The notes below the pieces were generated by a model. It had not been told where the DNA came from, searched no databases, and was given only the letters and a program-made list of their open reading frames with translations. Below are positions 1,380 to 39,874 of a stretch of 64,000 nucleotides of DNA, piece after piece. A program made the translations under genes and the position numbers. This DNA is from Candidatus Iainarchaeum sp. (GTDB lineage Archaea; Iainarchaeota; Iainarchaeia; Iainarchaeales; VGJJ01). Positions within the stretch are counted from its first letter, which is position 1, and every line of letters begins with the position of its first letter. The stretch lies in the NCBI GenBank assembly GCA_043803765.1, contig JAZDJQ010000012.1, positions 96,001 to 160,000 of the forward strand, read 5' to 3'.

Positions 1380-1531
1380 AATGACATCATCAATTTTGAA
1401 TCACTAGAATAACATCCATAATGGACTATTTTCTCCATGTTGGGCGCGCGATATTTTCTAACATTCTCACCCGCTTTTGGGTCACACCCTTTTTTCAGCA
1501 TCAAACTTCCACGCGTCTGGAAAGAAAGCCC

Positions 1532-3538: not shown

Positions 3539-3628
3539 GGATAAATTCTTCAGGAATCCTCTTTTTAACGCGTGGCGGTGGCGTGCCAACGGCATATTTA
3601 TATTGTTTTTCTTACTTTTCTTACTTGT

Positions 3629-3886
3629 ATGACAGATGTGGCGATTGTAACCGTAAGCGAAAAAGGGCAGATTGCCCTCCCTAAAAAAACGCGGGAGCGA
3701 TGGGGAATTCATAAGGGGGACAAATTATTGTTGTTGGAAAACAAGGGAAAAATCGTTTTGGCACCCGTTAAAGGGTCAAAAGAAGCTGCGGATGTGGATG
3801 AGATGCAGTGGATAATGGGGGTGTCCGCTCAAGTCTTGAAGGAGGATTGGGATTACAAGGGGGATGATGTCTGGGATGAGTTATGA
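3629..3886 (+). CDS. AbrB/MazE-type antitoxin
   Basis: VTVSEKGQIALPKKTRERWGI swapped-hairpin motif; overlaps the toxin start. Confidence 0.85.
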   Translation: MTDVAIVTVSEKGQIALPKKTRERWGIHKGDKLLLLENKGKIVLAPVKGSKEAADVDEMQWIMGVSAQVLKEDWDYKGDDVWDEL

Positions 3887-4226
3887 GCAGGGGGATATTG
3901 TATTAATGTATTATCCCAATACGGATCTTTCAACGGGTAAAAAAAGACCCGCATTAGTAGTATCAAATAGTGCGTTTAATTCTCGACAGGATGATCTGAT
4001 TACGTGTCTCATTACGAGCAATATCGAACAAGACCCGTTGGGAGTCATTATTGATTTCCATGATTTATCAGAGGGGAGTTTGCCGGTAAGGAGTCGCATT
4101 AAACCGTATCGAATTTTCACGGCTAAAAAAGGGGTCATTGAAAAAAAGCTGGGGGTAATCTCGAAACGGAAATTAAATGAGACGTTTGAAAAAATACAAA
4201 AGGTAATACGGCCCGCCGTGGTGTAA
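3876..4226 (+). CDS. mazF: PemK/MazF family toxin
   Basis: QGDIVL..YPNTDLSTGKKRPALVVSN motif. Confidence 0.85.
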   Translation: MSYEQGDIVLMYYPNTDLSTGKKRPALVVSNSAFNSRQDDLITCLITSNIEQDPLGVIIDFHDLSEGSLPVRSRIKPYRIFTAKKGVIEKKLGVISKRKLNETFEKIQKVIRPAVV

Positions 4227-4423
4227 AAATAGGCAATCCTGCTGAAAAGGACGTCGGAAAGGATTTGTAATATACTCTATTTTTGGTCTCCAAACCTGCT
4301 CACCCTCCAAAACCTATTTTAACGCACGAGGCCTGTTTGCGTCATGTCGGTTGCAATTAACAGGGTAAGCCAATGGATTGTCGAGCAATCCCTTTATACA
4401 CGCGCGACTGGAGTGAGACAACG

Positions 4424-7400
4424 ATGAAGATTGGAGGTTTTGAAGTCGGCCCCTATGCGGTGCGGGAGGAAGGGGGAAAGAAGCACCTCATCTATGCGTG
4501 TAAAGACTGTGTTTTTGGTGCGAGTCTAGCCGATGATGCGCATTGTCGTTTTCACGTGTTGAATATTTTGCAAAAATCCGATGCGGATTTGATTGTGCTT
4601 GCGGATGTATATGAGCGCGTATACAATGAGGAGCAAACAAAGAATTGGAAAGAGATTGCGGATTTGATTAATGAGTTCAAGGGAAAAGAATACTGGAGTT
4701 ATTCTCATTTAGGCGACCCGGAGAAAGAAAACGAGGCAGAGTTTGGTGCGCGACACGATGAGATGATGCAGATAACGTATGAAGTTCTTTCATACGATCC
4801 AATCAAGGCATACCTTCGTTGTCTTTCTGCACTCAAAAGGGAAGCGGGAAAAGCAAAGAGTGGTGGAAACGCATCTCCAGTATATGGTAAAACTCTTCAA
4901 TCGGTGAGAGAATCATTTGAGAAAACAAAATTTATTCAGCAGACAAAAGAATATTTGTTGAGATTGGATTCCATTCCCGATTCAAATGAATTGTATCGTC
5001 ATTTCTTTGAAGCCGAAGTAAAGCCGTCCTTTATTGGTTCACGCTTAATGTTTGGAAATGAAGTGGAGAATTTTGAATTATTGGACGAGTATTCTGTTGG
5101 AAAGTCTACGGTTCAAATATTCAATCATCCAAACAAAGTGGCTAAATTATATTTTGTGAATCCGCCTGAATATTCTCTCTCTCCTGAAAAATATTTTCTC
5201 CTTAGTAAGACGAAAGAAGTAGTATCGGGATACAACCCCGGACGTTCCGGATTATCGGACATTGCTTCCTCTCGAAACTATTTTACTCGTGTCTATCAAG
5301 CCACCATTCGTGATTTGGCTCATCGGAATAACATCAAAATAGAAAACGAGGAAATTGAAGAGTTAGCGGAAGTCGTGTCCCGCTATACGGTAGGATACGG
5401 CATACTGGAATTGTTGCTGTCCGACCGAAAAATAACCGACATCTTTTTGGATTCCCCCATAGGGGGAAAACCCGTGTACTTGGTGCACGCCGAATACGGA
5501 CAGTGCATGACGAATATTTTGTACACGGAGAATGAAGCGGAAGCATTTGTTTCTAAACTTCGCGCCATGAGCGGCAGGCCGTTCGATGAAGCCCACCCGG
5601 TATTAGACTTTGATTTGCCGGGGCAGGAAACCCGTGTGGCGAGCATTGGAAAACCGCTTTCCCCGGATGGTTTAGCATTTGCTTTTCGCCTGCACAAAAC
5701 AACCCCCTGGACGCTTGAACAATACATTGACAATAAGTTTCTCACCCCTCTTGCTGCGGGAATGCTTTCTTTTTTTGTTGATTCTAAAGCAACGATGCTC
5801 GTAACCGGTTCCCGCGGGAGTGGAAAAACAAGCTTGTTGAGTGCATTGATGCTTGAAATATTGCAGAACTCGCGATTGATTGTGCAGGAGGATAGCGTTA
5901 CAGGGGATTCTGAAATATTGGTTGAAAACAACAACCAAATGGAATACACCACGGTAGGAAAACTCGTTGACAAACAAATGGAGGAATTCGGAAGCCTGCC
6001 CATACACAATAGAGAATTATTAGACTGCAACCCGAATAATATACACGTCTTTGCATTGGATAAAAATGGGAGAATCCAACTTCAGCGTGTGTCCCAATTC
6101 AGCCGGCACAAAGTGACAAAAGAGATTATTGAAGTCACTACACGCAGTGGGAGAAAAATAAAAGTGACGTGCGATCACTCATTATTCAGTCTGAATGAGA
6201 GTGGAAGAATTGTTCCGGTCAAGACATCAGCATTAACACTAGGGAGTTATGTGGCAGTTCCTAAACTGTTTTCATCCGAAAACAGTCCTATCCCCGCATT
6301 TTCAGGATTGGAAGCGCTCGCATTGGAAGAAAAAGCGCTTCTCAAGGGGGAGACCTTACGGCTTTTTGTCAGCCAGAATTGGATAGAAGTAAAAAAATGG
6401 GCAAATGAAAAAGGATATCAAAAGAGCACCCCAAGCGCGTGGAAACGGGCGGGAATACTTCCAGCAAAGCTCTTTATACTATTGAATGGACCATCCCAAA
6501 TTCCCATTAAAAACATTCAATTCAAACTAGACAGGAAATCAAAGGAAATTCCACTTGTATGGGAAGCAAACGAAGATTTGGTGACTCTCGCGGGATTGTG
6601 GCTTGCGGATGGATGTTATGACACACGGTATGGAATGATTGTTTCCGTTGGCGATGAGCCGAGCAAACAATTGCTTGAACGTTTCGCTGAACGATTGGGA
6701 TTAACCACTCGGGAACATAGCGACGGGTTTTCCACTATTATCTCAAACACGAATCTCGTGTGGTTCTGGAAAAATGTGATGAAATTGAATGGAAACGCGT
6801 ACACTAAAGAATTCCCTCAGTGGATTTTTAATGCATCGAAATCCCAACAGGGCCGTTTTTTGAGAGGATTATTCAGCGGAGACGGGTGTGTAACCCAAAA
6901 TGAAATAAATATTTCGTTAGCCTCGGAGAAGATGACCAAACAGATTCAAACGCTCCTGACCCATTTTGGAATTATTTCCCGTAAAAGAAAAATAGATGAA
7001 AAAGACAAAACATATCAAACCTATATTGGGGAATGGAATCATTTCAATTCCTTCCAGAAAAATATCGGGTTTTTACCCCAACACAAAGTAGAACGGCTGA
7101 ACAATCTGTGCTCCAAAAAAAGAGCCACGCATGACACGCTTGATATCGTACCAATATCCAAAGAAAATATCAAAAATATTGCGGCCGTGTCTGAACCGTT
7201 TAATTCGCATGATTATATTGGAAAAGGAAATAGAATGGGAAGACGTAAGCTTCAATCATTGCTTTCCACAGTGAAAACGCAAACGGTTCTTATTGATGGT
7301 CTCAAACAAACAATGAACTCGGATGTATTTTTCGATGAAGTGGTGGAATTGCAAAAAATAGAACATGAAGAAACATATGTGTATGATTTTTCAGTCCCGG

Positions 7401-8338: not shown

Positions 8339-10138
8339 TTACGTTAACCAATCAAACAATGTGTCCCAGAAAGAATCGGTCGAATCTTTACCTGTTCCAT
8401 CTTCGCTCCCATTACTGGTTGTCCCGTTGGGCATGCAATACAAGAGAATAGAGTCCCACTGGGTTCCATCGGTACACCCATAATCGTCTGAAGTATCATC
8501 TTGACCCGGTTCGTCCGGCATAAGTATGTAACACAGTTTATTGAGTTCGTCCCAGCCGAATCCGTCGGGGCACACGTGATAGTACTCACCGTTATCGGTT
8601 CCGCATAGCAACAAATCGCCAAAAGAGAAGGGATACTGGCAGGTCGGGACGGGAAAATTATAATTTAAGCACGTCGGATAAAGGGGATCGAATACCGAGA
8701 TGGGCCAATTGCATTTATTGTAAGGAGTCAACATGCACAGCTTGTCGGTTTCATCCCAGTCATAAAATTGGGAGCAGGGGTCACTTCCATCCGCACAAAA
8801 CCAACTATACCCGCCATCCGGGGAAACGGGGTCGGGACAGGAAGGCCACTTCCCTTCTTTTAAGAGACAAACCAAAAACGGTTCTGCTTCAGCTGGATCA
8901 TGAGGAAGAGGACAAGGACCACTTGGCGTGCTCGTATCATCTCCGTCGTCGTCATCCGTGCACTCAGGACACTTACAGGCTACTGCACTAATATCGTATT
9001 CGCAGATAGGCGGATCATTACAAGCCCCCGGACCCGTGGTAACAGGACAATATTTTCTGTTGCAATATTCTTCAAGAAGCATTACGAGATCATTTTCGCT
9101 TAGCTGACTAATGTCGAGTCCTTTTATTCCAGCCATCAACGCGACAGCCGCACTCGTGTCAACGCTCCCTGCACATTCTCCTCCCTCTGATGCCCCGCCT
9201 CCGCCGCCGGGTGCCACTGGACTATTTGGACCGGGCGTTGTTGAACCCGGGGGAGATCCACCGCCCCCAGTGGTCGTCGGACCCGACCCAGAAGGAGCCG
9301 TGGGGGAACCAGGGCCGGGAGTAGAACATCCTTCGGCATCATATTTACACTCGCAACCGTACTTATCCTCTCCATGTTCACCCACAGCTATGTAGCCCGT
9401 ACATTTTCCTTCCATCATGCATCCAAGAGGGCCTGTTTTGTCGGGGCATTCACGTTGGTTGCATCGTGCGTTGTTCACCATGTCGTAGTCTTCCGGAGTA
9501 CTGTGTTCGTCAATAAGTTGGTCATACATTTTCGCAAGCTGTTCTTGGGTCAAACCCGGTGCATCCTTGCAAATGTTACTTCCCCCTGTAGTCGGACCAC
9601 TGGGTTTCGATTCCGGCCCAGATGGTGCTTGGGGAGTTGTGGCTCCTCCGGTGGTTGGTCCATATGGATCCCTACACTCACAAGAGTATTCATCTTCCGA
9701 CTCATAAGTAGACATGGTGCACACTTCCCCCGGTGGGCACCTTCCGCCACAATTGGTCGAACTTCCGCAGGTGTAAAAAGCTTCTATAACCTCGTTAACA
9801 ATACCGGCTGCTACTCTTTTTGGAAAGCACAAAATATTCTCAGCTGCATCGGCAGTAACAGAGATAAATCCCCCTATGTTCTCTGAAAGAACCCCACAAG
9901 CGAGTCCAGCGGAGCCAGCCGCTCCAATGATAACCCCCAACTCACTCGCAGCAGAGAAGGGAAGAGCAACAAGCGCGATGGATCCTTCCCCAAAGGTATC
10001 CACTGATTCAATAGCATTATCTTTGAACGAACTCATCCATCCTGCCGAGACGAGGGAGGCGTGTTGTCCTATCTGGAATCCTACAACCGACACCAAAAGA
10101 AGGGAGAGAATCAATACTTGAAAGAGAGGTGATTTCAT
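8339..10138 (-). CDS. Secreted Cys-rich surface protein with Pro/Gly/Thr linkers
   Basis: Signal peptide, repeated disulfide modules, GPTTGG linkers, C-terminal C-x-DG-x2-WD-x5-C repeats; RBS gaggtga upstream. Confidence 0.8.
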   Translation of the reverse strand: MKSPLFQVLILSLLLVSVVGFQIGQHASLVSAGWMSSFKDNAIESVDTFGEGSIALVALPFSAASELGVIIGAAGSAGLACGVLSENIGGFISVTADAAENILCFPKRVAAGIVNEVIEAFYTCGSSTNCGGRCPPGEVCTMSTYESEDEYSCECRDPYGPTTGGATTPQAPSGPESKPSGPTTGGSNICKDAPGLTQEQLAKMYDQLIDEHSTPEDYDMVNNARCNQRECPDKTGPLGCMMEGKCTGYIAVGEHGEDKYGCECKYDAEGCSTPGPGSPTAPSGSGPTTTGGGGSPPGSTTPGPNSPVAPGGGGGASEGGECAGSVDTSAAVALMAGIKGLDISQLSENDLVMLLEEYCNRKYCPVTTGPGACNDPPICEYDISAVACKCPECTDDDDGDDTSTPSGPCPLPHDPAEAEPFLVCLLKEGKWPSCPDPVSPDGGYSWFCADGSDPCSQFYDWDETDKLCMLTPYNKCNWPISVFDPLYPTCLNYNFPVPTCQYPFSFGDLLLCGTDNGEYYHVCPDGFGWDELNKLCYILMPDEPGQDDTSDDYGCTDGTQWDSILLYCMPNGTTSNGSEDGTGKDSTDSFWDTLFDWLT

Positions 10139-29762: not shown

Positions 29763-29783
29763 AGTCCCGCCTCCGGGACTTCA
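29763..29783 (-). repeat. tRNA-Tyr 3'-end fragment A (att-like site)
   Basis: agtcccgcctccgggacttca vs tRNA agtcccgcctcccggacttgca. Confidence 0.75.
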
Positions 29784-29974: not shown

Positions 29975-30358
29975 ATGTCCTCCCATTTTAAAAATCTAGG
30001 GATTTTGCTTGGATTTCTCCCCATTGGGATAATCATTTATGGATTTGTTTTTTCTTCCCCCTCTTTGGTTTTGCCATTCCTTTTGAGTGCCGTGGCAGTA
30101 AATATCCTGCTATTAGTTATTGCGCCGCGAATTTGGAAAAATCCTGCTTTATCCAAAATTAAAATGGGTGCGATGAGTGTTTTTAGTCTATTGAATAACA
30201 TTATTGTTTCAGCGGTACTAGCAGTGGCATACGTTTTCAGCGTAGGCATCGTTTTTATTTTCTCCCGCATTATCGGAAAAAAATTCATGAATCTTTATCC
30301 AAAAAAAACGAGCTGGGTGAAAATTGAAAAAGCAAAAGAAGACTATTTGGAGATGTAG
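29975..30358 (+). CDS. SxtJ-like membrane protein
   Basis: TM protein next to DUF5989 and a carbamoyltransferase; C-terminus RIIGKK..SW. Confidence 0.6.
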   Translation: MSSHFKNLGILLGFLPIGIIIYGFVFSSPSLVLPFLLSAVAVNILLLVIAPRIWKNPALSKIKMGAMSVFSLLNNIIVSAVLAVAYVFSVGIVFIFSRIIGKKFMNLYPKKTSWVKIEKAKEDYLEM

Positions 30359-30366
30359 GTGGCGCA

Positions 30367-32109
30367 ATGTACATACTTGGAGTTTCTGCATTTTATCATG
30401 ATTCGGCTGCCTGCCTGATTAAAGACGGTGAGATTGTCGCCGCCGCTCAAGAAGAACGTTTCACGAGAAAAAAACACGATAACTCATTCCCAAAAAACGC
30501 AATTGCATATTGCCTCCGGCAGGCAGGCATTTCTCCCAAGGAGGTGAATAAAATTAGTTTTTATGAAAAACCTTATGTCAAATTTGAACGCCTTCTCTAT
30601 CAATTTATTGAAACCTATCCAAAATCTTTCTCCACATTCATTGAAACCATCCCTATTTGGCTGAATGAACGGTTAAATGTACCCCAGCATTTTGAAAAAG
30701 AAGGTTTTCGTGCACCCATTCAATATGTGAGTCATCATCTTTCGCATGCAGCAGCCAGTTATTACACTTCCAAATTTGATAATGCGGCCATTCTCACTAT
30801 GGATGGTGTAGGAGAATGGGCTACCACCACGATGGGTTTTGCAGAAGGAAATAATATCACACTCACCCATGAAATCCATTTTCCCCATTCGCTGGGATTG
30901 TTATATAGTGCCATTACTGCATATCTTGGTTTTTCAGTGAATAATTCCGAATACAAAGTCATGGGCTTAGCCCCTTATGGAAAACCCAAATATAAGAGTG
31001 AATTTGACAAGCTCGTTCATGTGTATCCGGATGGCAGTTTCTCCCTCGATATGGATTATTTTGCCTTTACGTATGAAAAAAAAATGAATTCAAAAAAAAT
31101 GGAGGAATTATTCAACCATCCCGCTCGAAAAAAAGAATCCGAAGTCACCCAATTCCACAAAGATGTGGCAGCCTCTCTCCAAACCAAAACTGAAGAAATC
31201 GTCATCAAGTTATGCAATGAATTATTTCATCAGACTAAAAAAGAAAATATTTGTTTGGGCGGGGGCGTGGCGCTAAATTCGGTTATTAATGGAAAAATTT
31301 TGACGCAAACGCCTTTCAAAAAAATATGCATCCAGCCCGCAGCAGGAGATGCCGGCAGCGCTATGGGCGCCGCGCTGCATGTATGGCACCATTATTCTCC
31401 TCAGTCCCTGCGCCTTCCTTTCTCACACGCTTTCTGGGGACCGGGTTTCTCACAGGAAGAAGTAAAAAAATTTCTGGACCAGAAAAAAATAAATTATTCC
31501 ATGCTCAAAAATACACGGGAAATTGCTTCGCATACCGCTAAATTGATTCACGAAGGAAATATTGTGGGTTTTTTCCAAGGGAGAATGGAATGGGGCCCCC
31601 GCGCATTAGGGGCGCGAAGTATTTTGGCCAATCCTACAGACCCAAATATTAAAGATATATTGAACCAGAAAGTCAAGCACCGTGAACATTTTCGGCCGTT
31701 TGCACCGGTGATTCCTGTAGAGGATGCAAAAAATTGGTTTGATTGTGATTTGCCTCTCCCTGAGCCCGCTGATTACATGCTTATGGTGTACCCTGTCAAA
31801 AAATCCAAGCGCGAAAAAATTTTGGGAGTAGTCCACGTGGACGGCTCTGGAAGGTTACAAACCATTCGCAAAAACCAACACGCATTGTATTATCAGACCA
31901 TCCGCGAATTCGAAAAATTATCGGGGGTGCCGATTCTCATTAATACTTCTTTCAATATCCGTGGTGAACCCATTGTGTGCACTCCTGAGGATGCCTATCG
32001 CTGCATGATGGGAACAGGCATTGATTATTTGATGATTGAAAACTTCCTCGTGGCACGAAAAGACAACCTTCAAGATGCTTGGGATAGTGAAAAACTAGCA
32101 AATGATTAA
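30367..32109 (+). CDS. Carbamoyltransferase (NodU/CmcH/TobZ family)
   Basis: FYHDSAA, EERFTRKKH, HHLSHAA, DGVGE, EYKVMGLAPYG, GPRALGARS, FRPFAP, NTSFN. Confidence 0.95.
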   Translation: MYILGVSAFYHDSAACLIKDGEIVAAAQEERFTRKKHDNSFPKNAIAYCLRQAGISPKEVNKISFYEKPYVKFERLLYQFIETYPKSFSTFIETIPIWLNERLNVPQHFEKEGFRAPIQYVSHHLSHAAASYYTSKFDNAAILTMDGVGEWATTTMGFAEGNNITLTHEIHFPHSLGLLYSAITAYLGFSVNNSEYKVMGLAPYGKPKYKSEFDKLVHVYPDGSFSLDMDYFAFTYEKKMNSKKMEELFNHPARKKESEVTQFHKDVAASLQTKTEEIVIKLCNELFHQTKKENICLGGGVALNSVINGKILTQTPFKKICIQPAAGDAGSAMGAALHVWHHYSPQSLRLPFSHAFWGPGFSQEEVKKFLDQKKINYSMLKNTREIASHTAKLIHEGNIVGFFQGRMEWGPRALGARSILANPTDPNIKDILNQKVKHREHFRPFAPVIPVEDAKNWFDCDLPLPEPADYMLMVYPVKKSKREKILGVVHVDGSGRLQTIRKNQHALYYQTIREFEKLSGVPILINTSFNIRGEPIVCTPEDAYRCMMGTGIDYLMIENFLVARKDNLQDAWDSEKLAND

Positions 32110-32205
32110 CTATCAAATACGGAGATTCCTTCTCTTGGAAAAAAAGTTGACAGATTAAAAATCCAAAAGCCACCCATTATAAAATTATAGATTTTTATAG
32201 GGTTT

Positions 32206-33306
32206 ATGCGCTCATCTGAGTATCCTACTCTTGTCATGGTAGTGCTTTTTTCATTTATTATTGGATTGTTTCTCGCCGAAGGACTGTTGATCGTTCTCAA
32301 CATAGAACCTGCTCCCAATTTACTTTGCACATATATATCGGATGAAACACGCGGTCACGCATTATACCCAAATCTTTCCGGTCATTTTGTTTATGAACCT
32401 GAAATCGACATGAACTTCACTATCAATAAATTAGGTATGCGCGGAAGTGAACCAGACGAAAAACTAAAAAAAATATTTTTGGCAGGAGATTCCGTTTCTT
32501 TCGGATACAGTGTGGATCAAAATGAATCGTTTGCCGCAAAAACAAATCAAGAAATAAAGAAATTCGGATATGAACTGCTCAACTTGGGAACCCCCGGTTA
32601 TGGTTTGACACAATCACTTATTACCATTAAAAAAAATCTTGTGTTTAATAATCCCGAAATTGTAGTATTGGAAATAACTACTCCGAATGATTGGTCGGAT
32701 GATTATACCTTCACCACTGTTGGACCTACTAACTGGGTGGATGAACAGCACTGTATGGTCAGCAAGCGCCCTGCTGGAGTCATTACCACAATCAAATCAA
32801 TCGCTTACCGGAATTCAAGGCTGGCGCGGCTTATTAACAAAAACTTTCGCCAGGAAAATCTGATAGAATCCAACAATGTGATATCTGACAGCCTGTTGAA
32901 AGACCCAACCCAAATTGTGGTTCAGGCAAGACAGATACAACGCCAGCGTCTGAACGAATTTCGCGAGTTACAATCGCAATATCATTTCAAATCACTCATC
33001 TTGCTTATTCCAAGTCGTATTGAAACCGATGAGGTTTTTTTTAATCAGACCATCCAGAATACTCGCCCGGCCAATGAATACAATCGTCGAGAACAGATTG
33101 AATTTTATCTTGGGATTTGCAAGGAGATGGGTTTTGAATGCATTGACATGGGAAAGGCATTTGAGGAAGAATACCAATCCGAATCCGCATCAACCGAATA
33201 TTATAACCATAAAATTGACCATCATCCCAACAAAAAAGGAAACCTGTTCATTGCCGAAACACTGATACCGGAAATTGTCCAAAAAATTCAAGAAGATACA
33301 AATTAG
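32206..33306 (+). CDS. Membrane-anchored SGNH/GDSL hydrolase-like protein
   Basis: N-terminal TM, INKLGMR, GDSVSFG, NLGTPGYG, DHHPNKKGN. Confidence 0.82.
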   Translation: MRSSEYPTLVMVVLFSFIIGLFLAEGLLIVLNIEPAPNLLCTYISDETRGHALYPNLSGHFVYEPEIDMNFTINKLGMRGSEPDEKLKKIFLAGDSVSFGYSVDQNESFAAKTNQEIKKFGYELLNLGTPGYGLTQSLITIKKNLVFNNPEIVVLEITTPNDWSDDYTFTTVGPTNWVDEQHCMVSKRPAGVITTIKSIAYRNSRLARLINKNFRQENLIESNNVISDSLLKDPTQIVVQARQIQRQRLNEFRELQSQYHFKSLILLIPSRIETDEVFFNQTIQNTRPANEYNRREQIEFYLGICKEMGFECIDMGKAFEEEYQSESASTEYYNHKIDHHPNKKGNLFIAETLIPEIVQKIQEDTN

Positions 33307-33360: not shown

Positions 33361-33400
33361 TAGTCCCGCCTCCCGGACTCGCACACGGGTATCTTCCGGC
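33361..33400 (-). repeat. tRNA-Tyr 3'-half fragment B (att-like site)
   Basis: tagtcccgcctcccggactcgcacacgggtatcttccggc aligns with the tRNA up to the anticodon stem. Confidence 0.88.
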
Positions 33401-33503
33401 TTTATTCAAAGGTTCGGCTGTGGCCTCACAATTAGTGAAGTTAGTGCACATAGTGAATAATGGGATAGGCAAGCTCTTTATATGAAAATAATGCAATAGG
33501 GCT

Positions 33504-34130
33504 ATGTTTGAAAAATATCGCCCATTTTTACTGGGAGTTTCTCATTCTAAGGAAATGCTGTGGGATGTTTTTCAAGAGATTGACAAGGTAAAGCCAAAAT
33601 CAATTGGAATAGAAGAATCAAAATGGTCTGTTGAGAACTGGAGACAAATTGGGTTGAACCCCCACCACGCTGGATTTTGGCGAGTATTGATTAGAGAGTG
33701 TAGAGCGCGAGGTATTGAAATAACGTACCTTACTCCTGATAGAGTTGCCCAACAAAATATCCGAGAACAACTTCGGTTGAAAAAACTGGGAATTACCGCA
33801 CAAAAGGTTCTTGAAAATCCACAAGGGCACACAGAAGGAAAGGAACTGTTACGACATATGCGCGATAAAACTACGGATGTCGTTGAAATGACTGCTCGGA
33901 AAAGACGTCCACAGATGCTTGTTTTGGGCTTATTTCATTCTGCTATTTTACGAAAAAACTTGGGCATTCCAAAAGCTCGATTTAGTGTCCATGTAGTCCC
34001 TTCGCCACGTGCGATAAGAGAGATGGGTGTTCGCGTTCCAAGAAGAAAATTAGAAGCGAGAAAAAAACAATTAATTGAAGGAATGCTTTTTCATGTCAAA
34101 GGATACCGAAGAGCCGCTCGAAAAAGATAG
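33504..34130 (+). CDS. Hypothetical basic protein (single-gene cassette)
   Basis: 208 aa ORF with TATA-like tttatat about 25 nt upstream; fills the space between fragments B and C. Confidence 0.7.
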   Translation: MFEKYRPFLLGVSHSKEMLWDVFQEIDKVKPKSIGIEESKWSVENWRQIGLNPHHAGFWRVLIRECRARGIEITYLTPDRVAQQNIREQLRLKKLGITAQKVLENPQGHTEGKELLRHMRDKTTDVVEMTARKRRPQMLVLGLFHSAILRKNLGIPKARFSVHVVPSPRAIREMGVRVPRRKLEARKKQLIEGMLFHVKGYRRAARKR

Positions 34131-34142
34131 AATTATTCTCAA

Positions 34143-34215
34143 TCCGGTCGTCGGGACGAAAGCGAAGCTTGAGTGTGTGAATGGATTAGTCCCGCCTCCC
34201 GGACTCGCAACCGGG
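34143..34215 (-). repeat. tRNA-Tyr 3'-end fragment C plus conserved trailer with inverted repeat
   Basis: tccggtcgtcgggacgaaagcgaagcttgagtgtgtgaatggattagtcccgcctcccggact, near-identical to 39755-39817. Confidence 0.92.
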
Positions 34216-34222
34216 CTTTTAC

Positions 34223-34546
34223 TCACTTTCTCACCGGCGGGTTCGATTCGGCAATGAGGTCTATGCTGGCGAGTACTATCATCTTTTCCAAAAACTTCTC
34301 ATGCTCTTTCAGAATGACGTCTCCATTTGGAAGTTTTGTGATTTCGGCCATCGCACGGTCTCGACATGGCTTACTTTCCCAATCTGCAATAGCATACAAA
34401 ATGGATGGATTCTCCAAACTGCGGAACAGTTTTGTTCCCCTTGCACCCGGGTAAGTTTGAATAATGTCACTCCCCCACTGCCACTGCCGGATAAAGTCGG
34501 TTTCCTTGCCAGGAATGGGATGGTGCTCAAAAATAACGCGATACAT
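34223..34546 (-). CDS. Antibiotic biosynthesis monooxygenase (ABM)-fold protein
   Basis: PGKETDF..W...YPGARGTKLFR..YAIADWES pattern. Confidence 0.72.
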   Translation of the reverse strand: MYRVIFEHHPIPGKETDFIRQWQWGSDIIQTYPGARGTKLFRSLENPSILYAIADWESKPCRDRAMAEITKLPNGDVILKEHEKFLEKMIVLASIDLIAESNPPVRK

Positions 34547-34562
34547 AGGTTCCTTCGCTTAA

Positions 34563-34787
34563 CTAAGCCATTTTCATAAACTCGTCTCGCTCCATCTTGA
34601 GTTCGAACTTAATGATTTTGTTTAACAATCCAGGCGGAATGGGCTTGTTCGAATGAAAGGCAACTGTTAGAATTCGCCCATCCAAATGTTCAAATGTTTT
34701 GTGTGACCCTTTTTGTCGCACTTCCAAAAAACCAAGTTTGTGCAGAATTTTGATTAAGTCTTGGGGATACAGAACGGATAATTTCAT
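34563..34787 (-). CDS. hicA: HicA mRNA interferase toxin
   Basis: LGFLEVRQKGSHKTF..H...PPGLLNKI. Confidence 0.9.
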   Translation of the reverse strand: MKLSVLYPQDLIKILHKLGFLEVRQKGSHKTFEHLDGRILTVAFHSNKPIPPGLLNKIIKFELKMERDEFMKMA

Positions 34788-34801
34788 TTGAAATCACCTA
34801 T

Positions 34802-35035
34802 TTACACAACCACTTTAACCATTCCAATAACCGATTCAACATCCACTTTGACTTTCTTTTTGACAAGCGTTTCTAAGTGCAAGGAAATTGCTTCCTTCAT
34901 ATTTTCTAACAATTCTTCAACAGTATCCGCATAGGAATAGCAACCGGGCAAAGCAGGGACTGAACCATAGTATTGTCCAGTTTCTGCATCTTTTTCGATA
35001 ACCACATCGTAAGGTCTTGTCATAATACTACCCAT
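34802..35035 (-). CDS. hicB: HicB antitoxin
   Basis: YYGSVPALPGCYSYADTVEELLENMKEAI. Confidence 0.9.
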   Translation of the reverse strand: MGSIMTRPYDVVIEKDAETGQYYGSVPALPGCYSYADTVEELLENMKEAISLHLETLVKKKVKVDVESVIGMVKVVV

Positions 35036-35088
35036 ACTACTATGAGAATAAAACCTTGCTTCCAGTAAACCGCCAAAAAGTGCTATTC

Positions 35089-35155
35089 ATCCATTCGGCG
35101 GGACGATTCATAAGCCTCAGGTGGTGATGGATTAGTCCCGCCTCCCGGGACTTCA
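35089..35155 (-). repeat. tRNA-Tyr 3'-end fragment D plus inverted-repeat trailer
   Basis: ggcgggac-N30-gtcccgcc tcccgggacttca. Confidence 0.88.
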
Positions 35156-35278
35156 ATGGAAAATATTCAGTATTATTCTTTTCCTCGCCTAAAATATGTG
35201 CAGTGTACATCGTCCGCCGAATTTGACTGATGATCCCATCCATATATCTCTTTTATACCCAGAAACAATTGATTGGCC

Positions 35279-36028
35279 ATGGATTGGGTATTATTGTTCA
35301 TTGTTTTTCTAGTGGGACTCGGAACAACTTTCATCGGCGCGATTAGTGGGGGAGGGGGGCTTCTCATGCGACCCATTCTAATTTTTTTAGGTGTGCCCAC
35401 CATCACTCTGATCGGCACTCCACGCGTGGCAGGAATATTGGGCGATTGGCCTGGATTGTTTTTGTTTCACAAGCATAAAAAAATCGATTGGAATCTGGCC
35501 ATATTCCTGACCATCCCTAACTTGATTGGAACCATCATCGCGGGGATGGTAGTCATAAGCTTGCCGACAGAGGCATTGGAATTATTTTTAGGAATACTGC
35601 TCATCGTCTCGGGAGTGGTATTTTCGTTCAATAAAAATTTCGGATTGCTTGAACAAAAATCTCCCTTTTCCAAAATTGGACAAAACATCCTCGGATTTAT
35701 CGGGACGAATGTCATATCCTTCGTTGGAACCATTACCGGTGGACTTGGCACACTCTACATCTCGTTCTACACGTTGATTTATGGTAAAAATTACATCAAC
35801 GCGGCTGGGTTGTGGCGCATCTCTTCCTATTTCGGAGGATTGGGCAGTTCGGTGGTATTTATCTGGAGTGGAATTGTCGACTGGCAACTCTGTCTGGTGC
35901 TGAGTGCAGGATTTTTGATCGGCTCCTATTTTGGGACGATTTACGGATTAAAAAAAGGGGTCGCGCGGGTCCGCTACCTTGTGATAGCACTCGCATTTGG
36001 CGCTGGAATAAAACTAATCCTATTTTAG
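35279..36028 (+). CDS. Sulfite exporter TauE/SafE family protein
   Basis: ISGGGGLLMRPILIFLGVP motif, multiple TM helices. Confidence 0.85.
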   Translation: MDWVLLFIVFLVGLGTTFIGAISGGGGLLMRPILIFLGVPTITLIGTPRVAGILGDWPGLFLFHKHKKIDWNLAIFLTIPNLIGTIIAGMVVISLPTEALELFLGILLIVSGVVFSFNKNFGLLEQKSPFSKIGQNILGFIGTNVISFVGTITGGLGTLYISFYTLIYGKNYINAAGLWRISSYFGGLGSSVVFIWSGIVDWQLCLVLSAGFLIGSYFGTIYGLKKGVARVRYLVIALAFGAGIKLILF

Positions 36029-36057
36029 GGAAAACGCCCAACCATAGATCAACGTAT

Positions 36058-36138
36058 ATTCATCTCCCAAACCAGCACGCGAGGATTCTTTGTTCGAGGC
36101 CTCGCCTGAGGGCTCGCTGACGTTAGTGTAGTTAGTGC
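36058..36138 (-). repeat. Degenerate tRNA-Tyr fragment G plus cassette-end motif
   Basis: Reverse complement aagaatcctcgcgtgctggtttgggag resembles tRNA aagatccccggtgcaagtccgggag; adjacent cgaggcctcgcctgagggctcg matches 39271, ttagtgtagttagtgc matches 33432. Confidence 0.55.
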
Positions 36139-36159
36139 TGTTCAACGAATGCATCTGTC

Positions 36160-36513
36160 TTACCTTTTCTTTATCTTGAACCGTTTATCATAATCGGGGT
36201 GCGACTCAATAACTAACACGAAGCAAATGACTTCGATTTCTTGGCGGCGAATGGTAAAAAGCATTCGCCAGTATTGAGCGAGTCGAATTTTGAATAGATT
36301 ATCTACATCCAATTCTTTTGGAATATCTTTTTTGGAGACTACTTCTCCGCGCAGAGGGTCTTCTTTCAACCATTCAATCTTTTCATTAATCGAACGCCAG
36401 AGGGTTTGATTTTCTGAACTCTTGATTCCTTTAGATTCTTCTTCAGTTACAAGTTTCTTCAGGCGTTCGTACTCTTCGAGAGCCTGACCAGTAAGGCGGA
36501 CGCGTGCTTTCAT
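36160..36513 (-). CDS. RelE/ParE-like toxin
   Basis: NLFKIRLAQYWRMLFTI..HPDYDKRF; overlaps the antitoxin stop (ATGA). Confidence 0.7.
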   Translation of the reverse strand: MKARVRLTGQALEEYERLKKLVTEEESKGIKSSENQTLWRSINEKIEWLKEDPLRGEVVSKKDIPKELDVDNLFKIRLAQYWRMLFTIRRQEIEVICFVLVIESHPDYDKRFKIKKR

Positions 36514-36764
36514 ACTTCCACGCTCGCATCCATCAATCGCTTCATTTTGTCTTTCGGAACATACACCCAAATAATGCCTTTGGGAGTGTCTAAAATCATA
36601 AAGCGCTTCTCCAAGTAATCTAAAATAACATCAAGAGTTGGGCGCATAATACGATTACCCGCTCGCTTTAGCAATTCATAACGGGAAAGAGGCTCTTTCG
36701 CCTCTTTGAGAATCTCTTCGACTAAAAGAACGGTTTTGAGAGTAGGGTAGTGTAGGACCTGCAT
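36510..36764 (-). CDS. Winged-HTH antitoxin-like protein
   Basis: HYPTLKTVLLVEEIL..TLDVILDYLE..IIW; coupled to the toxin. Confidence 0.7.
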   Translation of the reverse strand: MQVLHYPTLKTVLLVEEILKEAKEPLSRYELLKRAGNRIMRPTLDVILDYLEKRFMILDTPKGIIWVYVPKDKMKRLMDASVEV

Positions 36765-36837
36765 AAACGTCACCAACTACACTACGATAGACATATAACG
36801 CATATAAAGATATACCCTTAAACTCGCATTTCCAGTA

Positions 36838-37509
36838 TTACTTTATTGCCTTTAGCATTTCCACTGCACGTTTAGGGTCTCCCCTTCCTACTGGGAAATA
36901 ACACGGGACCACATTGGTTTGATGATTGCCCACTTTTAATGGATAAGTTGCTAGTTTGCGTGATTGAACGAATTTATCATAATAGTCCTGTAACCTGATT
37001 GTTTCTTGTGTGAGAAATGTAAATGGAATCAGCCCAAATGTGACAATGGTTTTGGGTTGAACTATCTCAATCTCCCTTCTCAAAATAGGTAGAAATAACT
37101 TAACTTTCTGTGCATCTGGCAATGTGGCGTCAGCTCCTGTCCATTTTACAATGTTAGTAAAGTAAAACGATTTTGAATCCAAGAAAGACCTAACTTTTTC
37201 AGTAAATTCCAATGACCAATTAGGTTCTTTCTCAATTTGTTTCATCAGTTCGTCGTCAAATAATTCTGCACGATTAAAAATTCGCCAGACGGGCTTGGTT
37301 CCAATAAAAGGAAAACGAGGACCTTTCCATAAAGGACTTGAGCTAATATTATGGTGCGTTGGATTAATGAAAACAAACATGTAATTCGGACTCTCAACAT
37401 GGCCGTTTCCTACAATGGGCATCAACCGATTTTCTGGAAAAAACGGTGTATGTGTGTCATTCACTATTTTCCATAAATCGTCTAACGAATGGCAATCTTC
37501 AGGACTCAT
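36838..37509 (-). CDS. Uracil-DNA glycosylase superfamily protein (atypical)
   Basis: FYFTNIVKW, LRREIEIVQPKTIVTFG, PCYFPVGRG. Confidence 0.75.
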   Translation of the reverse strand: MSPEDCHSLDDLWKIVNDTHTPFFPENRLMPIVGNGHVESPNYMFVFINPTHHNISSSPLWKGPRFPFIGTKPVWRIFNRAELFDDELMKQIEKEPNWSLEFTEKVRSFLDSKSFYFTNIVKWTGADATLPDAQKVKLFLPILRREIEIVQPKTIVTFGLIPFTFLTQETIRLQDYYDKFVQSRKLATYPLKVGNHQTNVVPCYFPVGRGDPKRAVEMLKAIK

Positions 37510-37537
37510 AGGATACAAACCGTTCTTTGATATTTAA

Positions 37538-37603
37538 TCCGTCCGGCGGGACAAGTCTGAAGTGTGAAAGTTTGAGGTAATAGTCCCGCCTCCCGGTCCT
37601 GCA
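37538..37603 (-). repeat. tRNA-Tyr 3'-end fragment E plus inverted-repeat trailer
   Basis: ggcgggac-N30-gtcccgcc tcccggtcctgca. Confidence 0.88.
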
Positions 37604-37612
37604 GTTATTTCT

Positions 37613-38587
37613 CTATTCAATGGATTCACCCAGCTTTTTGACAATAATCTCTTTATTTTCCTCAATAATTTGATGAATTTCTTTTCCACGATTCTCAAGG
37701 CACAAGTAAATGAATTTGGAGAACTTTGCATACTCTTTGGAAAGCTGAACCCGTTCAAGCAATGTAATGTAGCTCGCGCGATTGGAAAGGTTCACAATCG
37801 CACGTGGAAAACCTTTTTTTTGGAGCATTCGATTGAGGATTTCCCTTCCTGTGCGTCCATTTCCATCCTCAAACGGGTGAATAAACTCAAAGCGGGCGTG
37901 AAATTCGGATGCTAATTCAAGCGGGTGCACTCTTTCGCTATTTTTCTCCATCCAATCTAACAATTTTTTTATTCCGCTTTCGACTTTATCAGCTGGAACT
38001 GGCCTTACTTTTGATGCAGTAATGAACATCGGCCCTGTTCGATACTTTCCAGGATGTTTCTCCGGAAATCCATCTAAAATAGCCGCATTGATTTTTTTGA
38101 TGTTACGTTCATTGATTTCATTAATTTTCTTGGAAACCATTGCCGCTTTTTTCATATTTTCAATTTCTCTTATCTCATCTACTTTCTTTCCGGCAACGGA
38201 AGCCCCTTTCGTCAAAACTAACAGTGCTTCCTGCAAACTGAGCGAGTTTCCTTCCACAGAAGCACTTCCCTGTGCGTAACGCACGAATTCGTCTTCTTTA
38301 AATGATTCAAATCCGCTGGGAAAAAAATCCTCTAGGATAGAATAGTCTACTTTCAGTCGTTCCAAAGATAGAATTTCAGGAAAAGAGAGGATGTGCGACC
38401 GAAACTGTTCATGTGTTTGCTTAGCCCGTTCCAGTGCCTTCTTTTGAATGAACGTTTCAAGTCCTTCTTTCATTCTTCCGAAAGCCAGCCCCTTGTTTCC
38501 AAGAAGGACACTTATCCTCTTCTTTTCTACTCGGTCTTCTAAATAGAAGTAAGCCGTCCCCTTGATTGTGCGCTTTGAAATGAACAT
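37613..38587 (-). CDS. Fic domain protein
   Basis: HPFEDGNGRTGR catalytic motif; SASVEGN inhibitory helix. Confidence 0.92.
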   Translation of the reverse strand: MFISKRTIKGTAYFYLEDRVEKKRISVLLGNKGLAFGRMKEGLETFIQKKALERAKQTHEQFRSHILSFPEILSLERLKVDYSILEDFFPSGFESFKEDEFVRYAQGSASVEGNSLSLQEALLVLTKGASVAGKKVDEIREIENMKKAAMVSKKINEINERNIKKINAAILDGFPEKHPGKYRTGPMFITASKVRPVPADKVESGIKKLLDWMEKNSERVHPLELASEFHARFEFIHPFEDGNGRTGREILNRMLQKKGFPRAIVNLSNRASYITLLERVQLSKEYAKFSKFIYLCLENRGKEIHQIIEENKEIIVKKLGESIE

Positions 38588-38652
38588 AGAACAAGTTAAC
38601 ACCAAAAAGGTTAAAAAATGGTATTTTTAGTAAATATGGTGTTAACCCACAA

Positions 38653-38802
38653 TTAGTTTTCCAAACCTAATTTGACGCCCTCTCTGATAATACCATAAAC
38701 GTGCCAAATATCACAGACTCCACAGGACGGAAAATAATCCGGGCAACGTTTTCCCCAGTATTTTCGAATATGTTTATTCAATTCAAGCAGAACTTTCTTC
38801 AT
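38653..38802 (-). CDS. Small Cys-containing hypothetical protein
   Basis: MKKVLLELNKHIRKYWGKRCPDYFPSCGVC; overlaps the upstream ORF. Confidence 0.5.
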   Translation of the reverse strand: MKKVLLELNKHIRKYWGKRCPDYFPSCGVCDIWHVYGIIREGVKLGLEN

Positions 38803-39097
38803 CTTCCTTAACTCCCTCGTCGAAGCACTTGTTGCATTCCCAATACTCAACCTTTCTCACCTTCCCAGTCCACCTGACTACATTGTGGCTTTTTCCACCC
38901 ATTCGAAAAGTTCCAACTTTCACATGCTCACCCGTTCCCTCAATGGGAAATTTTAGTTTACTAAAGAAATGTCCTTTATCATAATGACCTGATTTTGTTA
39001 GTCGAACCCACATCCACTTTCCACAAATCAAACATTTACGACGAATTTTTCGGACAAATTTAGCATTCTCGCGCGCATGAAAATGTTTTTCAGACAC
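38783..39097 (-). CDS. Zn-ribbon-like hypothetical protein
   Basis: CLICGK ... YWECNKC. Confidence 0.55.
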   Translation of the reverse strand: MSEKHFHARENAKFVRKIRRKCLICGKWMWVRLTKSGHYDKGHFFSKLKFPIEGTGEHVKVGTFRMGGKSHNVVRWTGKVRKVEYWECNKCFDEGVKEDEESSA

Positions 39098-39181
39098 CTT
39101 TTAAAAAGACCCCATTCAAAATAAAATCATATGCAAATTAATACACTATAGACGAATACCAGTTCGACAGTTAGACGGTTA

Positions 39182-39238
39182 TTATACTTCCACGCTTCCA
39201 TGGATCAGCTTCTTCATCTTATCGTTCGGAGCATACAA
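39182..39238 (-). pseudogene. Remnant 3' end of an antitoxin paralogous to 36510..36764
   Basis: Translates LYAPNDKMKKLIHGSVEV* vs VYVPKDKMKRLMDASVEV*; cut off at fragment F. Confidence 0.65.
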
Positions 39239-39294
39239 CCTCCTGATACTCGCAACCGGGAAATTATATCCGAAGCCTCGTCTGCGGACTCGGA
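39238..39294 (-). repeat. Degenerate tRNA-Tyr fragment F plus cassette-end motif
   Basis: cctcctgatactcgcaaccggg vs fragment C cctcccggactcgcaaccggg; then cgaagcctcgtctgcggactcg. Confidence 0.6.
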
Positions 39295-39300
39295 GGGCAT

Positions 39301-39723
39301 TTAATTATCCATCTTAAGCGCTTTAAGTTCAGTTTCAAGTTTTTTTACAAGGTCATTTAAGTCAGTATATTGGATGATTTTGTGTAAATTAGGAATACCC
39401 AAAACCATAGTTGATTTTGATAAATCAACAGTGTCTTTGGCAATGAGAATGAGTGGAATATCATTTTCGTATCCCATTTGAAGTTCCATTCCAACACCAT
39501 GAGAAGGACTACTTACTTCGGCGATAAATAAGTCGCATTTTGTAATGGTGTCAATTGTTCGCGTGTAAAACTGTTTTGGAGTTTCTTTTGAATCCCAAAA
39601 ATCGGGATAAGTACCTATAACTTTGTCATAGTATTTGCTACAAAGTTTAGCTATTCTTTTGTAAATAGGGAGATAATCCTGCCCAAAAAGAAAGATTGGT
39701 CCGAACACGTAAACGCTCGTCAT
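39301..39723 (-). CDS. Nucleoside 2-deoxyribosyltransferase / DNPH1(RCL)-like N-glycosidase
   Basis: VYVFGPI, CDLFIAEVSSPSHGVGMEL, STMVLG. Confidence 0.82.
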   Translation of the reverse strand: MTSVYVFGPIFLFGQDYLPIYKRIAKLCSKYYDKVIGTYPDFWDSKETPKQFYTRTIDTITKCDLFIAEVSSPSHGVGMELQMGYENDIPLILIAKDTVDLSKSTMVLGIPNLHKIIQYTDLNDLVKKLETELKALKMDN

Positions 39724-39801
39724 AGTACTGCCACCTCAACCATGTATTTAACTGTCCGGTCGTCGGGACGAAAGCGAAGCTTGAGTCGGTGAATGGATTA
39801 G

Positions 39802-39874
39802 TCCCGCCTCCCGGACTTGCACCGGGGATCTTCCGGTCTACAGCCGGACGCATTAGCTACTATGCTAAGGCGGG
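39802..39874 (-). tRNA. tRNA-Tyr(GTA), intronless; anchor of the cassette array
   Basis: CCCGCCT..TCCGG-CT-GTA-GA-CCGGA..CCCGG-TGCAAGT-CCGGG-AGGCGGG-A. Confidence 0.92.

Follow-up and report, generated by a model that had tools for sequence, protein, structure and literature searches.

DPANN archaea have tiny genomes, and the routes by which they gain genes are poorly known. We analysed a 64,000-nucleotide (nt) window of contig JAZDJQ010000012.1 from Candidatus Iainarchaeum sp. (host genome G000; 1.02 Mb, 19 contigs, 93% complete), in which the end of a tRNA-Tyr gene recurs several times, at some sites followed by a spacer and then by an inverted copy (the arm), such that the two could fold back on each other. 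What are these fold-back sites, and what is the arm for? We find that the fold-back sites, four in number, mark the junctions within a stack of small mobile gene cassettes behind the sole tRNA-Tyr gene, a hypervariable slot behind one essential tRNA. The arm is a real, conserved, and cassette-borne part of the docking site; the evidence does not establish that it functions as a DNA hairpin.

Joints of a cassette array behind tRNA-Tyr

The tRNA-Tyr(GTA) gene (39802..39874, minus strand, 73–74 nt; ARAGORN, and Rfam RF00005 at 63.2 bits) is the only tRNA-Tyr that ARAGORN identifies in the genome, and its short variable arm is of the archaeal type. Its 3′ end, GGAGGCGGGACT, is found in six minus-strand copies, at 29764 (A), 33363 (B), 34189 (C), 35135 (D), 37583 (E), and 39801 (the live tRNA), and no other copies are present in the genome. 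The window contains nine copies of GGCGGGAC where 0.97 are expected, and none of 100 shuffles reaches nine. An initial annotation described four sites at which GGCGGGAC is followed by a spacer and then by GTCCCG(C/A)C, and these are confirmed: in the tRNA direction the inverted arm follows four of the six core copies, after spacers of 31 nt at the live tRNA, 30 nt at E, 30 nt at D, and 31 nt at C. No inverted arm lies downstream of the core at A or B, and a seventh, decayed joint is located near 36075–36140, between a ParE-like gene and a reversed TauE gene; these three are additional to the sites given in the initial annotation. The pattern of core, 26–34 nt, and GTCCCG has four matches in G000 and its reversed control none, and within this genome the arm motif is confined to these joints. 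A lone 7-of-8 inverted match in one trailer is within the shuffle range (shuffle maximum 9), and the significance therefore comes from recurrence across sites and from no one site.

The array is a tRNA-anchored accretion of about seven integrase-less cassettes across 10 kb (Fic, HicAB, ParE-like, UDG-like, TauE, and others), with the intact tRNA at one end and direct repeats of the tRNA 3′ part bounding the units. All joints are on the minus strand. At the live tRNA the core, GTCC-GGGAGGCG-GGAC (39801..39816), comprises the final tRNA bases plus one and is the proposed crossover region; it is followed by a 31-nt C-type spacer (39770..39800), a class 1 arm, GTCCCGACGACCGGAC (39754..39769), and a TATA-like box, TTAAATA (39745..39751). 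Joint E (37537..37598) is composed of the core (37583–37598), an E-type 30-nt spacer (37553–37582), and a class 2 arm, GTCCCGCCGGACGGAT (37537–37552), with TTAAATA at 37531–37537. Joint D (35089..35150) contains the core (35135–35150), a D-type 30-nt spacer (35105–35134), and the arm GTCCCGCCGAATGGAT (35089–35104), and joint C (34142..34204) the core (34189–34204), a C-type 31-nt spacer (34158–34188), and a class 1 arm (34142–34157). Joint B (33363..33455) includes a tRNA-like 3′ half plus the core (33363–33378) and is armless, as is joint A (29764..29779), the final core copy, past which conserved chromosomal genes resume. The decayed joint (36075..36140) was recognised by comparison with a site in the relative G185 (L029 11970) and retains CACTAAC-TA-CACTAAC repeats, a tRNA-like remnant, and a truncated core, GGGAG.

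The trailers at C and at the live tRNA had been reported as near-identical and cassette-like, and indeed share 91% identity over 78 nt with divergence on both flanks, such that the two sites have only core, spacer, and arm in common and the trailer behaves as a portable module. The TTAAATA box noted after the hairpin at E and at the live tRNA is likewise present, abutting the arm at E and 3 nt past it at the live tRNA, and its first T is 28 nt ahead of the cargo ATG at both (that of a 140-aa gene at the live tRNA).

In its extended form, A-GTCC-GGGAGGCG-GGAC-T, the core has short inverted half-sites around an asymmetric 8-nt centre. The T-loop and trailer sides change together between the genus and other families (AAGTCC/GGACT versus AAATCC/GGATT), which is what would be expected of an ordinary tyrosine-recombinase core. 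The arm layout, GTCC-N8-GGA(C/T), matches the core half-sites (GTCC-N8-GGAC) around a different centre, and the arm is itself a quasi-palindrome (TCCnGnC|GnCnGGA). The arm centre is CGACGACC at 12 sites and CGCCGGAC at nine, and it is never CGCCTCCC, the perfect complement of the core centre. An origin of the arm by inversion, through a cassette inserted backward, was rejected on this ground and because reversed genes lie between normally oriented joints.

The tRNA-Tyr slot in related genomes

Pattern scans covered 196 genomes of the order, and tRNA-Tyr neighbourhoods were compared in 16 genomes of the same genus. The pattern of core, 26–34 nt, and GTCCCG is found in 6 of the 196, all of the same genus, with one match to the reversed control. 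The inverted arm is present at homologous sites in relatives, with 25 arm-bearing joints in eight same-genus genomes; these were aligned after removal of two of 27 candidates, L040:8774, rejected as a chance match within a glycine-rich coding region, and L039:9561, left out for its weak arm. Among the 25 sites, pairwise identity is highest in the core (96%), followed by the arm (80%) and the spacer (54%), and falls to 38% past the arm. A pattern scan of viral contigs yielded four matches, all by chance, on contigs of 62–69% GC and with no tRNA-Tyr context.

The slot extends from tRNA-Tyr to a conserved gene coding for a 161-aa protein (F19), and at this same chromosomal place its content differs: it is empty in G190, G195, and G193, and holds one to a few units in G181, G185, G186, and G187; in G183 no fewer than 12 joints are spread over 17.6 kb, and G188 has at least 10, divided between two contigs. 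Terminal joints of the arrays are followed by the native trailer and then F19, and this trailer (TAAyTTTCATCTATG.TTCAGTCTTCGGACTTCTATTTTGGCG...) is armless both there and at the three empty sites. The absence of the arm from empty tRNA-Tyr sites shows it to be cassette-borne, arriving with the cassettes, and a native tRNA terminator or trailer, the reading that the initial annotation set against its own, is thus ruled out. A screen of 45 G000 tRNAs for a tRNA end plus an inverted copy flagged only one, tRNA-Asp, with tRNA-Tyr taken alone falling within the shuffle range, and a comparable fold-back at 1 of 45 is no general rule among tRNAs.

Thirteen of 46 G000 tRNA genes have a near-copy of their own T-loop/acceptor 3′ end downstream, 10 of them at 43–193 nt (C1 48830, 49979; C2 10421; C3 55; C4 39074; C7 2987; C14 42459; C18 91702, 92891, 114412). 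The short inserts between tRNA and near-copy at these 10 contain a T-run plus a similar-looking hairpin of the ccgggcttttctgaaaaggccgg type, and the near-copies may be mini attachment (att)-flanked inserts or solo att scars at many tRNAs.

Comparison of joints locates the breakpoints of homology. Joints with a common upstream cassette diverge right after GGGACTAAT (G187_C35 versus G187_C3; G183_19952 versus G180 and G184), and in joints with a common downstream cassette the likeness starts at the arm, with unrelated spacers (G000_E versus G185_10445; G183_12815 versus G184_104). A cassette encoding a 94-aa protein occurs in three families with a near-identical B recognition element (BRE)/TATA region and gene, preceded by three different arms. 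Core and arm, each coinciding with breakpoints, thus act like points of exchange, with the spacer as a further small module.

Two metagenome contigs, L071 and L072, give direct evidence of precise core recombination: they represent the same locus without and with an 8.1-kb integrase element whose junctions fall exactly at the core, and the live tRNA of L071 leads straight into a C-type spacer, arm, and UDG cassette. In G185 this element lies between core repeats and opens with an integrase open reading frame (ORF), P0001 (350 aa), directly after the live tRNA-Tyr, and G187 has the same arrangement. The element attP has only about 20 nt in common with the tRNA (AAGTCCGGGAGGCGGGACTA), an identity block that covers only the core part of the joint. 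The catalytic domain of P0001 is of the PF00589 family, archaeal XerA is its top-scoring NCBIfam model, though below the cut-off, and XerA, XerD, and XerH are its closest solved structures. Relatives with 42–61% identity adjoin the tRNA-Tyr 3′ end in L050, L051, L052, L053, L054, and L056, and in five more distant archaeal contigs such an integrase likewise immediately follows tRNA-Tyr. No integrase is present within or beside the G000 array; the genome has three PF00589 matches, on other contigs, and a host XerA-like gene on contig C1.

Several details of these integrase loci were recorded. The tRNA-Tyr genes beside the integrase in L052 (~9330–9446) and L056 (~9920–10040) have an intron after the anticodon and were missed by ARAGORN, and in L052 three small cassettes lie between tRNA-Tyr 3′ repeats with no inverted arm. 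The G185 integrase frame (L029 2254–3327) is open through the final 53 nt of the tRNA-Tyr gene and has no ATG from the tRNA to residue 84; the true start may be at TTG/GTG codons near L029 2392–2409. A split integrase gene of the SSV type was considered on account of this open frame and rejected, as the same frame is closed at the distal joint by a TAG just before the core. In G000 a tyrosine integrase (C14:32452–33591, 444-aa frame) that is 38% identical to the G185 tRNA-Tyr integrase is located directly after tRNA-Met, and the trailer of tRNA-Ile(GAT) (C18:126562–126700) resembles that of tRNA-Met (GGCrGTAAAGTGCCCC) but has no integrase.

We favour, at about even confidence, the interpretation that the joints are composite att sites and that the arm is a second, inverted recombinase-type site in double-stranded DNA. 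It is preferred because the arm copies the half-site layout of the core, is a breakpoint, and tolerates any distance from the core, and because there is no sign of selection for pairing beyond that due to an inverted-copy origin. Cassettes would have been stacked behind tRNA-Tyr through site-specific recombination, with elements entering and leaving at the core (AAGTCC-GGGAGGCG-GGACTA, the tRNA end plus 3–4 nt), and the recombinase would be the Xer-like tyrosine integrase encoded directly after tRNA-Tyr by relatives and not by G000. The 28–33-nt copy of the native trailer, with its terminator-like mini-hairpin, would give a displaced tRNA end a normal-looking 3′ flank, and the inverted arm (GTCC-CGMCGRMC-GGAY) would stand at the start of the following cassette, in most cases immediately ahead of the TATA box belonging to it. 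These three parts (core, trailer copy, and arm) would assort independently, and each cargo block would have an arm to its left and a core to its right as inverted flanking sites, either of which could serve for exchange. We infer from the sequence comparisons that the arm would be bound by the integrase or a partner protein, that strand exchange would occur at it, and that cassettes would be moved in trans.

A number of observations weigh against such a second site. The integrase-bearing elements of G185 and G187 are armless next to the core, and so are the small cassettes of the distant array L052, showing that the arm is not needed for integration as such. The GTCC/GGAC half-sites, at 4–5 bp, are short for a tyrosine recombinase, and the breakpoints could have arisen by rare short-homology recombination between the conserved 16–20-nt blocks. 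One site, G183_13518 (L025:18420–18491), has two compensatory changes, G9T/C66A and G13T/C62A, which favours pairing, and a regulatory role would also suit an arm placed so closely ahead of TATA boxes. In G000 itself, at 93% completeness, no cognate integrase is present, the best tblastn match being the 38% identical gene at tRNA-Met (C14) and the next, on C17, 31% identical; the array may be a fossil.

Spacing, pairing, and the role of the inverted arm

Beyond the genus, the arm is kept and its distance from the core is not. A covariance model built from the 25 sites and run over 151 genomes of the order has matches in 25 of them. Arrays outside the genus were found on G078 contig 70 (three joints) and G069 contig 147 (seven joints), with single or double joints in G019, G014, G016, G056, G063, G066, G166, G171, and G135, and the arrays retain the arm motif (T/G)C(C/A)CG(A/C)CG(A/G)(A/C)CGG. 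A strict pattern of core, N6–36, and CGMCGRMCGG identified 12 sites in 9 of the 196 genomes, from three families, and none in the control. The core-to-arm distance is 8–10 nt in family f12, 13–20 nt in f4, f25, f29, and f15, and 45–47 nt at two G069 joints. Spacing that varies in this way between families is not fixed, and suits a separate site rather than one split site. The G069 contig (L110, tRNA direction 746–5450) contains six co-oriented cassettes of 0.65–0.97 kb, each with one or two small ORFs, its own TATA box, and a Shine-Dalgarno-like GGTGA, and is the most integron-like array that we encountered; two of its joints have a common 40-nt insert between core and arm.

Within the genus the spacer is 28–33 nt and mostly 30–31 nt. 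Spacer types C, D, and E align with each other and with native tRNA-Tyr trailers, including the start TAATCC, so the length is inherited and reflects descent, and the proposal of a site defined by its fixed spacing is not supported. Spacer type and arm class assort freely and independently among the 25 sites. The spacer also contains a mini-hairpin, AGTC-TTCG-GACT in the native trailer and AAGC-TTC-GCTT in the cassette form (as in the C-type spacer at the live tRNA), with AAAC/GTTT, AACC/GGTT, and AAGT/ACTT variants.

Pairing of this C-type inner hairpin through four variants, and its match to the native trailer hairpin, would agree with a structure at the RNA level, in which an orphan tRNA 3′ fragment pairs with the arm in read-through transcripts and provides a 3′-end or processing structure for the upstream cassette mRNA, or sequesters the acceptor strand of the pre-tRNA as the initial annotation suggested. 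A fold of the tRNA plus trailer gives a centroid with the fold-back at -38.8 kcal/mol and a minimum-energy RNA fold (-41.6 kcal/mol) that retains the tRNA acceptor stem. Other observations speak against such a structure. The outer stem has no excess of G.U over C.A, the inner hairpin reaches its full 4 bp at only 10 of 26 sites, several sites lack a T-run past the arm, and the arm lies upstream of the cassette's own promoter. Sequestering the sole tRNA-Tyr would moreover be harmful, and G186 keeps an arm-bearing trailer behind its tRNA-Tyr. We consider an RNA-level role very unlikely.

A folded single-strand site, comparable to integron attC or the CTX phage attP(+), is an alternative in which the tRNA-derived strand pairs with the arm (8 bp, a 3-nt GGA/GRM bubble, and 5 bp) and a recombinase acts on the hairpin, such that loop length would be immaterial; the arm is indeed kept across the order with loops anywhere between 8 and 47 nt long. 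Within the 8-bp helix, 89% of the cells show complementarity of arm and core, the triplet that does not pair stays mismatched in both arm classes and in other families (never CGCCTCCC), the 8-bp fold-back appears in six of eight minimum-energy single-stranded DNA folds, the integrase is Xer/IntI-like, and G183_13518 provides its two compensatory double changes. For the named fold-back structure as a whole, 74.1% of cells pair, against 71.5% in shuffles and 23–44% in slid controls. The compensatory changes that the initial annotation named as potential support for a structure are, however, nearly absent, as only three pairs in the outer helices show any double change, and in G171 (acceptor GGAGGGA) and G135 (GGGGGGA) the acceptor strand of the tRNA is altered and the arm unchanged, leaving two lineages uncompensated. 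The deviations number 23 G.T and 19 C.A, giving no strand asymmetry; fold energies are modest (-9.2 to -14.4 kcal/mol, z -0.4 to -2.5); and RNAalifold does not recover the fold-back from the 25-site alignment, returning only a 3-pair local helix. In addition, the 13-bp stem amounts to one binding arm of an ordinary site and not two, and the integrase elements use a core-only site. A folded site is thus unlikely on our assessment, and of the two recombination-site models first proposed for the joints, the cassette array bears out the general notion and the breakpoints at core and arm fit the symmetric two-arm recombinase site, with the attC-like hairpin not the best supported. Hairpin ends of the IS200/IS605 type were also considered and rejected, since no array has a hairpin at its last joint.

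The position of the arm relative to cassette promoters raises a further possibility, that it is a promoter-proximal operator or insulator: a GC-rich, palindrome-like protein site before the BRE/TATA of the first cassette gene, controlling cassette expression or blocking read-through from the tRNA or the upstream cassette, with its likeness to the tRNA end being historical. In seven families, most joints have a TATA-like box 0–35 nt after the arm, with the closely placed TTAAATA boxes of E and the live tRNA as examples; the arm is itself quasi-palindromic, and its distance from the core differs between families. However, the arm is also found ahead of convergent genes, which lack a promoter at that end (G000 C, G183_15020, G188b_7894, G188_16315), the arm-to-TATA distance is variable, and the break of homology at the arm would go unexplained. 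We regard a regulatory site as quite unlikely, and a second recombinase-type site in double-stranded DNA remains our preferred interpretation.

Cassette contents and comparison with known systems

The cassettes of the window differ in content and orientation. Cassette 1 (37613..39723, minus strand) encodes a nucleoside-deoxyribosyltransferase-like protein (140 aa), ORFs of 104 and 65 aa, and a Fic/DOC protein (330 aa). Cassette 2 (36160..37518, minus strand), which is also present in G185, encodes a family-4 UDG-like protein, an 88-aa protein without a known family, and a 136-aa weakly ParE-like protein. Cassette 3 (35273..36028, plus strand) contains a reversed gene for a TauE/SafE-type membrane protein, cassette 4 (34223..35035, minus strand) codes for HicB, HicA, and an ABM-domain protein, and cassette 5 (33504..34130, plus strand) encodes a 208-aa protein without a known family in reversed orientation. 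Cassette 6 (29975..33306, plus strand) contains a 127-aa ORF, a carbamoyltransferase (580 aa), and a GDSL-like esterase (366 aa), all reversed. The 208-, 104-, 65-, and 88-aa ORFs have no family match in Pfam or NCBIfam. The 88-aa protein (36510–36776, minus strand) is found in cassettes of seven same-genus genomes with differing partners (ParE-like, a 425–433-aa protein, or small ORFs), its nearest protein-atlas clusters are unnamed archaeal proteins, and it may be an antitoxin or regulator.

Two further motifs recur near the joints. CACTAA repeats are present at only two of the seven joints of the window (the decayed joint, and joint B at 33432–33455) and were rejected as universal arm-type sites on this count and because the genome-wide pattern and its control are equal, 5 versus 5. 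An TTTGGCGG(T)TT motif (35040–35090 in the window, and in relatives) lies 15–25 nt past the arm in many cassettes and takes the form TTTTGGCGAAAC in the native trailer that precedes F19.

The slot holds up to a dozen small cassettes, whose cargo ranges over toxin-antitoxin genes, Fic, DNA repair genes, and transporters, and its elaborate joint is conserved in several families of the order. Should the arm be a working second site, double-stranded or folded, the locus would provide integron-like shuffling of single genes by a mechanism undescribed for archaea; should it be only regulatory or a relic, this would be an ordinary accretion island, if an unusually tidy one.

Tandem accretion of integrative elements and islands without an integrase at tRNA and tmRNA genes is described for Prochlorococcus tycheposons, Dehalococcoides ssrA islands, streptococcal cis-mobilisable elements, and archaeal tandem integration (bioRxiv 10.1101/2020.12.28.424599, PMC8371274, PMC3146451, PMC7563491, PMC5704250). 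The array resembles these in that it starts from an intact tRNA, that partial tRNA 3′ repeats separate its units, that older units are pushed outward by newer ones, that many units have no integrase, and that, in relatives, a tyrosine integrase is specific for the tRNA. It differs in that the units are small (0.65–3.6 kb, one to four genes) and in the long conserved joint module, with trailer copy and inverted second site, that recurs across families. The archaeal recombinase review (PMC8371274) treats tandem and integrase-less integrated elements, and 'DPANN' and 'hairpin' have no occurrence in the portion of its text covered; likewise, no published description of such a joint or inverted arm was found in the parts of the literature covered.

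Archaeal integrons have canonical attC and intI, and 'tRNA' has no occurrence in the covered portion of their description (Ghaly et al. 2022, PMC9668308), according to which integron arrays often lack an integrase (CALINs). The array shares with integrons its small, mostly co-oriented, toxin-antitoxin-rich cassettes, a recombinase of the Xer/IntI clan, and a joint that is an imperfect inverted repeat with a conserved mismatch and variable loop. Unlike integrons, it has no RYYYAAC/GTTRRRY boxes, its arms being GGCGGGAC and GTCCCGMC in all 25 aligned sites; its anchor is a tRNA gene and not an attI beside intI, and TATA boxes are carried by the cassettes themselves. Opposite to the order in an integron, a hairpin-capable site is found at the joint nearest the tRNA and none at the final joint, and the relatives' integrase (P0001) scores 41.7 bits against the integron-integrase model, whose cut-off is 265. 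An attC has a conserved structure and free sequence; here the loop is variable and the mismatch conserved, but the arm sequence is conserved too, compensation is near nil, and strand bias is absent. An integron analogue in DPANN archaea is unlikely on our assessment; in it, tRNA-Tyr would be the capture site, small cassettes with their own promoters would be captured, stacked, and shuffled via a folded attC-like hairpin of the tRNA 3′ strand and its inverted arm, and a Xer-like integrase provided in cis or in trans would recombine them, in a system evolved independently of bacterial integrons.

Elements that exploit Xer recombination offer another comparison. The folded attP(+) of the CTX phage and the pdif modules of Acinetobacter plasmids contain inverted copies of Xer-type sites a short distance apart, and pdif-type modules are recombinase-less, often encode toxin-antitoxin systems, are flanked by inverted sites, and shuffle independently. 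The joints described here share with them the inverted site pairs and the small recombinase-less modules, and differ in that the site derives from a tRNA end and not from dif, and that relatives encode a dedicated integrase.

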